In this document: positions 1-3,000 of the stretch, piece by piece | Layout: each line of letters begins with the position of its first letter | Numbering within the stretch: position 1 is the stretch's first letter | DNA from: a virus | Lineage: Duplodnaviria > Heunggongvirae > Uroviricota > Caudoviricetes | Strand: one strand, 5' to 3' | IMG/VR virus record: IMGVR_UViG_2648501392_000022 | Span: 1-21,150 of that record | Length of the DNA stretch: 21,150 nt | Position numbers: made by a program

Positions 1-3000
1 ACCACCACGACAGCATGGTACCAGCAGGATCCCCGCGTTATTCGGGATATACGGAAGCAGTTTTTTGGCAATATGTAAGCCCTGGCCGACACAGCCGTAC
101 TGCCCTTTGCTCAGGTCTGCCTTCGGATGATTCAGCGTACTCATATCCTGCACATCATGCAGGCAGTGGTCGGCCGGAATAATATCGTTATATCTGCAGG
201 CAGCCCCACCCGGCGTCACTGTACTGCGGCGCGCCAGCTGTTTAATGCGCGGATCCGGAGCATCGTATGAATCCGGAAGCGGAAGCCCTTCACCGTAAGC
301 CATTGCATTGGACTGCCCGGCCAGTACGATGACGTAGTACCAATCCGGCTCAGTTGCACCACTGACCACCACATCACCTTCTGCTGCAATCGCCTGCATC
401 AGGGTATAAGGGGTTATGGCCACCGGACTACCAAACGGCTGCCAGCCCTCTTTCAGTTTGTGTGTCAGCTTTTCCGCAAGGTCTGACGGCGACGCCGCCC
501 TGACAACATCATAATGTTTAAATGTCATTATTCCTCCCGGCCGGGATAGTGTATTAAATCAGATATGGAGTGGGCTGTAGTCCGGAAGCCTGAATGACAC
601 ACGGGGACTACAGCCCAAGAAATGAAAAAAGGCCACGCAGTTGCGCAGCCTGATAAACCCTGGTTAAAATCCACACGATAACAACACAACAATATCAGTA
701 TCTCATGCTATTGCCCGAACCCATTCGGGCATTTTTTACCCATAAAAAATGCCCCTCCGGAGAGGGGCATGTTTGCATGCACATTCTTTTTCTTGCATGG
801 TGCCGGGTGCCTCCCGGTGAATTCAGTATCAGCACCTGAATCCGCGATTATCACATATACCTGGTTGCTGATTGCCCCTCCGCACAGGGGGATTCACCAT
901 GCAGTAGTATTTTTAATAAACAGTAAACAAAAAAATCAAGCATTATGCAGGCTGTTTCTTTTTATCACCGGCCACAGCAATACCACAATGCCGCAGACCA
1001 GCACCCCATCCGCCAGCACCGACATGATTCTGCTGGTGAAATCCACCATCACCACCAGAAACAGCAGGAGTGCAGCCACAGCCAGGCGCAGTTTTACCGT
1101 CACTGGTGATTCTCCAGACGAAGACCCAGAACACCGGCAATCTCTTCCAGAACCTTGCGCTCTTCCGGCTCAATTTCGCCGTCTGCCTCCGCAATAGCCA
1201 CCGCCACATCCAGCACATCTTCCGCTTCACGCGTATCGTGTTTCACATCTTCAATTTCACGCAATGTCGCTCGACGACCAATTTTAAAGTTCGTATCCAG
1301 CTGACCGATAATGGTTGCGCTAATCGCATTAATTTCTGACGTAAACGCGGACAGCGCTGGCTGATTACGCAGTACCTGTTCGATCTTCGCTTTCTAGGAA
1401 GCCTCACATTCACCATCTGCACAGGCCACCAGGTAGGCAGCATTAATAACCGCCTGTGCCAGATCGCGTTTCTCAAACTTTCCTTTTTCCGGTTAACGTG
1501 ACACACCAATAACTCTTGTCGAAAAAGCCAGCAAGCTGAAAGACCGGTATTCACCGCCGCCAGCGCGTTTACTGTACTGGACCGATTTCAGCCATAAAAA
1601 AACCCGCTCGCGGCGGGTTTAAGCTGTGTGGCGTAGTAACCACTCTTAACATACTGACATACTTTTTGCGGACCGCGCTAATCATTTTTTACTTTTTTGG
1701 GCAGCCAGTCGTCCATCTCCAGCCTTACACCCAGCATCGACAGACATCCGTCAATAAATCCTTCAGCAATCTGCATCTCAATTCGTATTGCCTTTTCGCT
1801 CTTCTTTCTTGTTCTGGCAATCTGCCTTTTTGATATGCGCAGCAGATAATGAGCTACCAGCAGCGAATACTCGTCCGGTTTTTTCTTCTTCAGGCGCGTA
1901 AGGCAGTTTTCGATGATAAGGCCGTCATCATCGCTGCAGGCCGGGCGAGGTTTAGCGGTGGATGGTAAAAGGCCTTTAAATCCAGCAGCTATCGGAGAAT
2001 AGTCCACCCCGGCGTTACCACTTGCCGCCCATGCCCCCCAGCGTTCGAGAACCATCTGAATATCACGCATTATTCGCACTCACCAACCAGATTGAGAATG
2101 ACCGCTGCACCGTCGTCTTCCATGCATTCACCCTTACCACTTGCCAGAAACCAGCGGCACACCTCCACGGCTTCAGCGCGTGTCACCGGTTTGATGGTTG
2201 CCAGCAATTTTTCAAGGTAGCGCTCCCGGTCATATACCGATTCGTGATGCTCAGAGTAACCAAACTCATCGCCCTGTTCTTTAGTTGCAGTGTGGCGAAC
2301 ACTGTAGAGCCAGTCCCAGTAAACGAACTCGCGAACAACATCAGACAGCGTATAAGGCTCAGGCAGCACATCGCGATATCCATCAACAAATGCCCGACGC
2401 TGTTCATCAATTTCGTTCATGCGGCTGCCGCCAATGCTTCCGGCTTTTTTCTCTGCCGCAGTCCAGCCCCAGAGATGATCGTTGATAAATTTCTGGGAAG
2501 ACCTGATGACCCGCTCTGCTTCCACATCTTCGAGCGCTGCTTCATAGCTACCAAACGTAGCCCTGACTGATGCCGCTTTTTTGATGTTCTCCCGGGCGTT
2601 CCTGATAACCTGCGCAGGGTTATCCATGCCGATGATGCCGAACGCAACCTGGAAAGGTTCGTAACCATTCGCCAGCAGATAACGCGAATAGCGTTCCTGA
2701 GCCTCTTTTGGGGAAATTTTAATTTTCACCAGCGCAGCCTCAGCAGCATCCAGATGTGCGGGTTCGTTCAGACGGATAACCTCCAGCACCCAAAGATAAG
2801 CATCAGTCTGCTTATGCCCGGTGATTCTCCGTTGCTCTGGCAGGGGCTTGATGTTTGCGAGGGCGGAGCTGTACGCTGCCGTCGGGATGGTGAATAGTGC
2901 TTTATGTTCGTTATTATCAGTACGCATTACGCAACCGCCTTTTTCTTATGGAAAACCAGCTCTCGAACCTGATCACCGTTCATGAGCATATTGTTGAAAT

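Follow-up and report, generated by a model that had tools for sequence, protein, structure and literature searches.

Directly downstream of the antiterminator gene Q, the DNA considered here contains a TerB-like reading that is interrupted by an in-frame amber codon, at a place where Stx-type phages carry toxin cargo. The question that this locus raises is whether the reading represents a dead gene, a gene that is still in use in some form, or an artefact of translation, and how it came to have its present structure. Our answer, to which we assign a probability of about 90%, is that it is a dead copy of tciA in the cargo slot of a lambdoid prophage, which was hit first by the amber mutation and then by a deletion of ca 2.6 kb, and which has been carried along since then as a hitch-hiking fossil. 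The term window is used below for the whole stretch of 21,150 nucleotides that was analysed. The locus runs from Q through a terminator, a leader, the tciA remnant, tciB and STnc100/AgvB to nanS-p, with the genes on the minus strand (Table 1).

Table 1. Features of the locus, in window coordinates
Feature	Position	Strand	Basis
Q antiterminator gene, intact	1678..2073	-	PF06530, RefSeq
Q–terminator spacer, presumed PR′/initial transcribed region	1623..1677	-	position only
Intrinsic terminator, tR′-like	1596..1620 (stem-loop 1600-1620, T-run 1596-1602)	-	terminator scan and fold
Q-downstream leader, ca 120 bases, not TerB-derived	1481..1595	-	alignment to EH2201 and PPyecE_EH1910
Deletion junction AAAG in A-rich microhomology	1478..1481	-	alignment to PPyecE_EH1910
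tciA (TerB family) remnant, codons 18-143 and TGA stop	1100..1480	-	Pfam TerB, DNA identity
tciB (DUF3927), 55 aa, intact	936..1103	-	Pfam, PHROG 1470
STnc100 sRNA gene	738..928	-	Rfam RF02076
AgvB anti-sRNA gene	676..737	+	Rfam RF02702
nanS-p, 5′ part (DUF1737 and SASA esterase), cut by window edge	1..528	-	Pfam, RefSeq

Identity of the remnant and of its downstream neighbours

Frame 1 of the minus strand over positions 1100–1600 reads as a TerB-like protein with a single in-frame TAG, located at 1394–1396. When the amber is masked, the Pfam TerB family (PF05099) is matched by the remnant with 42.5 bits (E 9.2e-11; the gathering score is 24.4); an intact relative reaches 60.9 bits. This relative also aligns to the TerB structure 2jxu in the PDB over residues 14–137 (E 9e-8), and TciA is assigned to PHROG 632 with an E-value of 1.7e-69. 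The DNA of the remnant is 88–96% identical to intact tciA genes of 143 codons. Chance is excluded as an origin of the TerB-like reading; complete E. coli genomes contain this DNA again in hundreds of cases. The reservation made in the first-pass annotation, that the reading could be a translation artefact without homologues, is thus removed by the Pfam match and by the identity to intact tciA.

The degraded state described there can also be confirmed. The remnant has no start codon, its codons 1–17 being deleted, and the TAG stands at codon 46; in RefSeq, identical DNA is already annotated as a TerB pseudogene (1100–1462) with the remark 'internal stop'. Judged from its sequence, the remnant is a pseudogene of the TerB family and not a working member of it. 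It is an ordinary pseudogene, already known from the RefSeq annotation, and it matters little in itself, being one more copy of what RefSeq flags in hundreds of E. coli genomes.

The protein encoded by tciB contains two hydrophobic segments and matches Pfam DUF3927 with 62.3 bits and PHROG 1470, 'TciB-like', with an E-value of 4e-30. It is identical to the tciB protein found beside 12 intact tciA loci. The GTG with which tciB starts and the stop of tciA overlap as GTGA (1100–1103), with a GGAG located 8 nt upstream of the GTG, and the remnant and tciB together match the layout of the tciA–tciB module, that is, a TerB-like gene followed by an overlapping DUF3927 gene. With tciB intact and provided with its own GGAG, the module is not wholly dead in the window copy, a point that counts against the main reading.

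Next follow two small RNA genes in convergent orientation. STnc100 (RF02076) scores 144.7 bits, the gathering score being 47, and lies on the strand of late transcription with its own terminator at 749–770. AgvB (RF02702) scores 96.5 bits, the gathering score being 56, and is identical to the consensus at all 62 positions. The nanS-p part matches Pfam DUF1737 with 59.2 bits and is named 'SASA family carbohydrate esterase' by RefSeq in E110019. Genes for holin and lysozyme are located farther downstream in E110019 and Z1323HEC0393.

The slot downstream of Q and its occupants

The Q product has 131 amino acids when read from the ATG at 2073, or 133 from the upstream GTG at 2079. It matches PF06530 with 175.9 bits, carries the RefSeq name 'antiterminator Q family protein', and is 91–92% identical to Q of the Stx2 phages ASU11 and 1720a-02 and ca 48% identical to Q of 933W/EDL933-Stx. 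The spacer between Q and the terminator is nearly identical in the Stx2a phage EH2201 and in PPyecE_EH1910. In 44 copies of the pseudogene from IMG/VR, the homology to the window stops at 1622, which indicates that the spacer travels with the Q allele. The PR′ promoter is presumed to lie here, from its location and from the identity with the Q–stx intergenic region of Stx2a phages; no sigma-70 consensus was found at 9 of 12 matches on the minus strand of 1600–1720, where inspection by hand gave weak candidates only. The terminator itself ends in seven Ts, and in EH2201 a hairpin of 9 bp is kept at this place despite several substitutions in stem and loop. From 2070 to 1479, the window is 90–91% identical to the Q-to-leader region of EH2201 and PPyecE_EH1910, and over Q and the leader the identity to Stx2a and Stx2d phages is 90–92% at the DNA level.

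It is important to point out where the homology to tciA ends. This is at ca 1480, and the sequence at 1479–1677 is the leader that normally follows Q in Stx2a phages and in PPyecE_EH1910; in a DNA comparison, this leader and the 5′ end of intact tciA are not similar. What had been described as frame disruptions upstream of the amber is in reality a deletion junction to this unrelated leader, and tciA is truncated at its 5′ end by a clean deletion, not frameshifted. We also looked for another N-terminus of TerB in the two remaining frames of 1480–1600 but rejected it, the LAGFFDKS-like string found there being leader DNA common to Stx2a phages. The first-pass annotation had further regarded as consistent with decay that the U-tract of the terminator abuts an ATG without a ribosome-binding site. 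The abutment is real, since the ATG at 1593–1595 touches the T-run and lacks a Shine–Dalgarno sequence, but the interpretation does not hold: what starts with this ATG is not TerB but a leader ORF of nine codons (1569–1595), and the ATG is conserved also in phages in which the cargo is intact.

A moron insertion site downstream of PR′, flanked by convergent sRNAs, was described by Tree et al. in 2014 (PMC4104026), and the position of STnc100 and AgvB in the window fits that pair. With Q and the terminator on the upstream side, and the sRNA pair, nanS-p and the lysis genes on the downstream side, the assignment of the remnant to the moron or cargo slot of lambdoid (Stx-type) phages is supported. 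Both the location directly after Q, in place of lysis genes, and the view of this interval as the one that holds toxin cargo in Stx-type phages, had been proposed earlier and are borne out, stx2AB being found at the same position. The slot as such has already been described by studies of Stx phages and of sRNAs.

The comparison with prophages of the same Q, which had been suggested as a check, shows two kinds of occupants. In the Stx2a phage EH2201 (Stx2_EH2201, LC567829), Q is followed by a 65-aa ORF, a methylase, tRNAs and stx2AB, and then by nanS-p. Its cargo, which also includes iraM, has no sequence relation to tciA, although the phage and the window are alike in Q family, terminator, leader, downstream nanS-p and the cargo interval used. 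Intact tciA–tciB, on the other hand, occupies the same slot in PPyecE_EH1910 (LC567835) and in the UPEC-245U prophage (WP_016237410.1). In these two and in JLK-2012 (NC_049942), the gene order, the GTGA overlap and the location between Q and nanS-p are as in the window. The intact lambdoid copies are 88–96% identical to the window in DNA over codons 18–143 and tciB; however, their tciA is an ORF of 143 codons, while the window copy lacks codons 1–17 and the upstream signals and has an amber in place of E46.

The same dead form is found in prophages of EHEC and EPEC, as the RefSeq TerB pseudogenes WHU04_RS11355 (Z1323HEC0393), ECE110019_RS17385 (E110019) and C6N27_RS19050 (2015C-3108), which are named 'tellurite resistance TerB family protein' and marked with an internal stop. 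Their DNA is identical to that of the window or 97–98% so, with the same amber, junction and neighbours, and only the upstream Q allele varies. The combination of the window's Q with the remnant occurs in 2 of 5,426 complete genomes.

Order of the two lesions and alternative readings

At codon 46 and the codon before it, intact alleles have TCA GAG or TCC GAG, and the window has TCC TAG. Since TCC GAG alleles exist (n = 47 in IMG/VR), one G>T change is enough to make the amber. As to the deletion, positions 2070..1479 of the window correspond to 832..1422 of the PPyecE_EH1910 segment L005, and positions 1481..1 to 4001..5481, which means that 1423–4000 of L005 (2,578 bp) are missing from the window. 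The junction sequence is AAAG, and AAAAAG is present in both parental sequences. Compared to PPyecE_EH1910, the 65-aa ORF, the methylase, a toxin–antitoxin-like pair and codons 1–17 of tciA are lost.

The order of the events can be read from the IMG/VR copies. The amber is present in 51 of the 51 copies that have the deletion junction, and none of the 65 loci with the TCA GAG pattern has this junction. The 5′ ATG is kept in 33 amber copies. Of the 78 amber copies read over their full length, those with the ATG mostly have a +1A frameshift as well, and only three have the amber alone and are otherwise intact. The amber thus came first, and the deletion or the frameshift after it. This dating, together with the demonstration that the supposedly frameshifted upstream part is a deletion junction, belongs to what the present analysis adds.

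In this course of events, a single G>T turned codon 46 of a TCC GAG allele from GAG into TAG, after which a microhomology-mediated deletion of ca 2.6 kb joined codon 18 of tciA to the leader, at a point shortly after tR′. The deletion took the promoter region of tciA, its ribosome-binding site, its start codon and its first 17 codons, and with them the 65-aa ORF, the DNA methylase and the toxin–antitoxin-like pair, such that the TciA protein could no longer be made from the remnant. In the lysogen, transcription would end at the terminator after Q. Upon induction, Q-modified RNA polymerase would cross the remnant toward tciB, STnc100, nanS-p and the lysis genes, a read-through that we infer only from position and homology. 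The remnant persists and is common, which would be explained by its position, wedged between conserved functional elements, and by its spread among EHEC/EPEC prophages through recombination.

Another option is that the gene still functions, the amber being read through, either by a suppressor tRNA or in a programmed manner, and translation being initiated within the fused leader at a codon that is non-canonical. The frame is open from the amber to the normal stop, the protein sequence is well kept, and the RBS-like AAGGAAAG, which belonged to the 65-aa ORF before its deletion, is now placed just before codon 18. However, there is no in-frame ATG, GTG or TTG between the TAA of the leader (in frame, at 1493–1495) and the amber, ARAGORN finds no tRNA gene in the whole window, suppressor or other, and the lost first 17 residues are conserved in all intact alleles. 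In addition, sister amber alleles have independent extra lesions (the +1A frameshift, the deletion, truncations of tciB), and their private substitutions look neutral. Having no tRNA in the window, no start codon and, across the family, 3 of 78 amber copies without further damage, the locus does not resemble a recoded gene, and we attach almost no probability to this option.

We have also considered that the C-terminal fragment could be made as a new small protein, for example from a 54-aa ORF that starts with TTG (1100–1264). PHROG 3920, with 48 residues, matches residues 96–143 of TciA (E 4.4e-36), which means that an ORF of this kind is repeatedly annotated in phage genomes by gene callers. 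However, no clear Shine–Dalgarno sequence precedes the TTG, the fragment covers the last third only of the TerB helical bundle, as seen from the 2jxu alignment, and PHROG 3920 is most simply a by-product of annotating the same pseudogene. This scenario is very improbable, and the short ORFs collected here by annotation pipelines and by PHROG 3920 are probably pieces of this one dead gene.

The remnant could instead matter as RNA or DNA, for example by serving the late transcript as leader or spacer, by giving rise to an sRNA, or by coupling tciB and STnc100 to Q. It is located between tR′ and STnc100 on the strand of the late transcript, many Hfq-bound sRNAs are known from this slot (PMC4104026; PMC7547250), and the deletion form is widespread. 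Against this, Rfam gives no match at threshold within 1100–1680, the best ones being of 18–21 bits, compared to gathering scores of 41–50, and falling on the terminator hairpin (Trp_leader with 20.7 bits and isrK with 18.3 bits). Moreover, the Q-proximal RNA of 88 nt has no more structure than shuffled sequences (z = 0.32), and there are intact phages with wholly different cargo (stx2AB, tRNAs, the toxin–antitoxin-like pair), which shows that no particular spacer is required. We regard a role of this kind as improbable, if somewhat less so than the small protein.

Prevalence of the dead allele and the wider TciA–TciB family

The reading of the remnant as a hitch-hiking fossil can be compared with its frequency and with the substitutions that it has accumulated. 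When 5,426 complete E. coli genomes were searched, the exact 56-mer around the amber was present in at least 529 of them and the 56-mer across the junction spanned fully in 478, and from this census the dead allele looks commoner than the intact ones. Truncated or altered forms of tciB are present at 24 of 78 amber loci, compared to ca 4 of 55 loci with intact tciA. Substitutions private to the amber alleles are nonsynonymous and synonymous in the ratio 6:2, where the neutral expectation is 3.2:1 and intact alleles have 56:94; they look near neutral, the comparison comprising only 8 private substitutions (Fisher p = 0.058). The deletion, the +1A frameshift and the tciB truncations in sister amber alleles, together with the relaxed constraint in this small sample, are the features of a neutral pseudogene.

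The high frequency of the dead allele could hint at selection instead of hitch-hiking. Loss of TciA may be advantageous in EHEC if co-resident prophages or the ter island of the chromosome are impeded by this TerB-like protein of the phage, or the compact cassette of Q, tR′, remnant, tciB and STnc100/AgvB may be a favoured unit of recombination. These ideas, as well as the separate one of a tRNA-linked role of tciAB (see below), are long shots.

Among phages, temperate as well as virulent, the tciA–tciB pair is widely distributed, and the role of the intact pair is the only real question that the remnant touches. Phage P1 has tciA–tciB–tciC (AF234172), in which the TerB-like gene has 41% protein identity and is directly followed by a DUF3927-type tciB; P1 differs in being another type of phage, in having the extra tciC, in that the genes are located in the ban region with tRNA genes on either side, and in that the gene is intact. 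The function of tci is assigned in the P1 record 'by homology' only. The pairing is present also in Erwinia ChrisDB and Salmonella SP-076. Compared to the TerB encoded by the ter operon for tellurite resistance, represented by 2jxu, tciA has the same Pfam domain but no terZACDE neighbours, and its partner is a 55-aa membrane protein, not TerC. A literature search for the function of TciA and TciB gave no experimental work, be it on tellurite or colicin resistance or on a cell-division phenotype, its matches being mostly unrelated Trypanosoma papers, and a PADLOC scan of TciA, TciB and a 285-aa ORF for defence systems gave nothing meaningful. By analogy with TerB, the intact pair would have a membrane-associated role in stress or exclusion.

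Finally, tciAB is found beside tRNA genes in P1, in lambdoid phages and in Erwinia jumbo phages, and a role in relation to tRNA-targeting toxins or defences ('colicin resistance') could be envisaged for such tRNA-linked copies. As a general rule for tciAB, the adjacency to tRNA genes fails in the N4-like Salmonella SP-076, and in Pseudomonas PMBT3 and Ebordelon. In Vibrio K480, the sole tRNA is located ca 2 kb from tciAB.

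Identity of the remnant and its surroundings

The sequence at 1100-1480 is a pseudogene of tciA, a phage accessory gene known before. This pseudogene is widespread and drifting, and the cargo slot in which it lies is likewise known. The reading frame that terminates at 1100 runs ...KFEKRDLAQAVINAAYLVACADGECEAS, a stop, KAKIEQVL...ENHQ and a second stop, the first of these being a single in-frame TAG at 1394-1396. With this stop masked, the remnant matches the Pfam TerB family with an E-value of 9.2e-11 and 42.5 bits (cut-off 24.4), and an intact relative matches both the TerB structure 2jxu (E 9e-8) and, end to end, PHROG 632 (E 1.7e-69). 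The first-pass annotation of a TerB-like frame interrupted by an amber codon is thus confirmed. The frame is not a translation artefact without homologues, since it shares 88-96% DNA identity with intact genes of 143 codons named tciA or 'TciA/TerB-like' (PPyecE_EH1910, JLK-2012 and a UPEC prophage).

The pseudogene status was also annotated beforehand. RefSeq labels the same sequence, as it occurs in two complete genomes, 'tellurite resistance TerB family protein, pseudogene, internal stop' over the stretch equivalent to 1100-1462 here. With gene, pseudogene annotation and cargo slot all known before, the remnant itself offers little that is new. PHROG 3920 (48 residues, 'unknown function') matches TciA residues 96-143 (E 4.4e-36), which form the C-terminal third of the protein and are equivalent to 1100-1246. 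The family probably consists of short ORFs that gene callers have found in dead tciA copies such as the present one.

In the left part of the window, all genes lie on the minus strand (see table). The 285-aa ORF between primase and Q (2070-2927) gave no above-threshold Pfam family and no PADLOC match; it is probably a real gene, because it overlaps each neighbour by a few bases.

Features of the left part of the window
Feature	Position	Strand	Support
Helicase, primase, 285-aa ORF	upstream of Q	minus	
Q antiterminator	1678-2073	minus	Pfam PF06530, 175.9 bits
Spacer (55 nt)	1623-1677	minus	
Intrinsic terminator	stem 1600-1620, seven T 1596-1602	minus	
9-codon ORF opened by ATG 1593-1595	1569-1595	minus	
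TerB-like reading frame, TGA stop	stop at 1100-1102	minus	
DUF3927 gene (tciB), GTG overlapping the TerB-like frame's stop	936-1103	minus	Pfam, 62.3 bits
STnc100 sRNA	738-928	minus	144.7 bits
AgvB anti-sRNA, convergent with STnc100	676-737	plus	96.5 bits, identical to Rfam consensus
nanS-p start	1-528	minus	DUF1737, 59.2 bits

No single complete genome is identical to the whole window. E. coli E110019 is 99.98% identical, but it has an extra IS3 copy at the join near 12214-12216 and a frameshifted Q, which is intact here. Z1323HEC0393 is 100% identical over 900-2100 and equals the window over 1-7801 and 12214-21150 only, having lost beside its IS3 the early-region block 7802-12213 that is kept here. 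The window therefore derives from a third strain related to these two.

Deletion junction and leader

In the alignment, similarity to intact tciA stops at ca 1480 (codon 18). From 1479 up to Q, the window instead aligns collinearly, at 90-91% identity, with the sequence running from Q into the leader in Stx2a-converting phages and in the non-Stx phage PPyecE_EH1910. Compared with the latter, 2070..1479 corresponds to locus positions 832..1422 and 1481..1 to 4001..5481, and the two are therefore separated by one clean 2,578-bp deletion. An A-rich microhomology marks the junction, with AAAAAG in both parental sequences and AAAG at 1478-1481. The deleted DNA contains a 65-aa ORF (PHROG 331), a DNA methylase and a 'plasmid stabilisation protein'/regulator pair, together with the sequence upstream of tciA and codons 1-17 of the gene itself. 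Between the leader TAA (1493-1495) and the amber there is no in-frame ATG, GTG or TTG.

The first-pass annotation, correct in substance, had thus mistaken this junction, at which leader DNA is joined to codon 18, for upstream frame disruptions. It had also taken the ATG abutting the terminator as a sign of decay, but the same ATG is found in the Stx2a phage and PPyecE, both with intact cargo. The ATG belongs to the leader, has no bearing on tciA and does not represent a degraded start codon.

The terminator seems to be functional: in the Stx2a phage EH2201 a 9-bp hairpin and a following T-run persist despite several changed stem and loop bases. A consensus scan between Q and the terminator gave no sigma-70 promoter, and from position only we infer that PR' lies there. 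Structure in the Q-proximal short RNA beyond the terminator is not unusual (z = 0.32), and no Rfam family reaches threshold within 1100-1680.

Order of the lesions and spread

The IMG/VR sample comprises 88 loci with the amber context and 66 with the TCA GAG context. The deletion junction occurs in 51 loci, each of them with the amber, and in none of the 65 TCA GAG-pattern loci; the amber therefore preceded the deletion. Since TCC GAG alleles exist (47 loci), one G>T transversion is sufficient to account for the TAG. The 5' ATG is retained in 33 amber copies. Among the 78 fully read alleles of the amber loci L087-L174, about 30 retain the 5' end but have a +1A frameshift in the A-run at codons 7-8 (A7 instead of A6); these are nearly all of the copies with the 5' ATG. 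Only three of the 78 have the amber as sole lesion. The frameshift is a second, independent further damage to the same dead allele.

Of the 78 amber loci, 24 have a truncated or altered copy of the neighbouring tciB, compared to about 4 of 55 loci with intact tciA. The amber alleles have 6 nonsynonymous and 2 synonymous private substitutions (neutral expectation 3.2:1), against 56:94 in intact alleles, a contrast with a Fisher p of 0.058 in a small sample. Taken together, the lesion order, frameshifts, tciB damage and substitution ratios are consistent with a gene that the amber inactivated and that has drifted since.

An amber-centred 56-mer is found exactly in 529 records from complete E. 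coli genomes, among them O157:H7, O145, O121, O26, O111 and O103 strains, and at up to 5 sites in one genome. The same 56-mer also seeds on intact TCC GAG alleles, but as these fall at 95-99% identity, the exact count is safe. A junction-spanning 56-mer is fully covered in 478 genomes, and the intact-type 56-mer matches in 285. The combination of this Q allele with the remnant is rare, occurring in only two complete genomes. For 44 IMG/VR copies, the match to the window breaks off exactly at the terminator (1622); recombination has therefore placed the cassette behind other Q/PR' modules. Some prophages of the O111 type have another Q allele, separated from the same cassette of terminator and remnant by two hypothetical genes on the reverse strand (E. 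coli 2015C-3108, L002 3477-4938). This arrangement would leave an unusually long distance between Q and the cargo and calls the location of PR' there into question.

The cargo slot and the intact pair

The proposal that the remnant occupies the moron slot holds. In EH2201, the same Q type is followed by a 65-aa ORF, a methylase, three tRNAs, stx2A, stx2B, iraM and nanS-p, and PPyecE_EH1910 has tciA-tciB in place of the tRNAs and stx2AB. In the UPEC-245U prophage, a Q 98.8% identical to the present one is followed by tRNA-Ile/Arg/Arg and intact tciA-tciB. Similarity to the Stx phages restarts just past tciB, at ~874-922 in the STnc100 region. PR'-controlled stx sits between Q and the lysis cassette (2021 review, PMC8065619), and past PR' moron coding sequences come first, then convergent sRNAs and a conserved ORF (Tree et al. 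2014, PMC4104026), which is the layout of the STnc100/AgvB pair here.

The 3' ends of these two RNAs adjoin at 737/738, just downstream of tciB. Between AgvB and the start of nanS-p there is a third strong hairpin resembling a terminator, AGGCTGCGCAACTGCGTGGCCT with TTTTT after it (625-651, minus strand), and a minus-strand RNA terminating there would be antisense to AgvB. Weak Rfam matches of ~21 bits to GcvB (624-772) and OmrA-B (624-708) end at this hairpin.

TciA is a TerB-domain protein and TciB a 55-aa protein with two hydrophobic segments. Their genes are conserved neighbours in P1, lambdoid phages, an Erwinia jumbo phage and the N4-like Salmonella phage SP-076, and in Pseudomonas phage Ebordelon a TerB gene is followed by a small membrane protein gene. 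This conserved adjacency suggests that a cytoplasmic TerB domain may be partnered with a membrane protein, and that the pair may be of benefit in lytic growth, not in lysogens alone. The naming 'tellurite or colicin resistance or inhibition of cell division' rests on homology only, and neither protein matches a defence-system profile.

The association of tciA-tciB with tRNAs is recurrent, not universal. The intact pair adjoins tRNA clusters in P1 (L241), Erwinia ChrisDB (L242), JLK-2012 (L006) and UPEC-245U (L003), and in N4-like and Pseudomonas phages (L243, L245, L246) it is found among nucleotide-metabolism genes (dUTPase, dCTP deaminase, ThyX).
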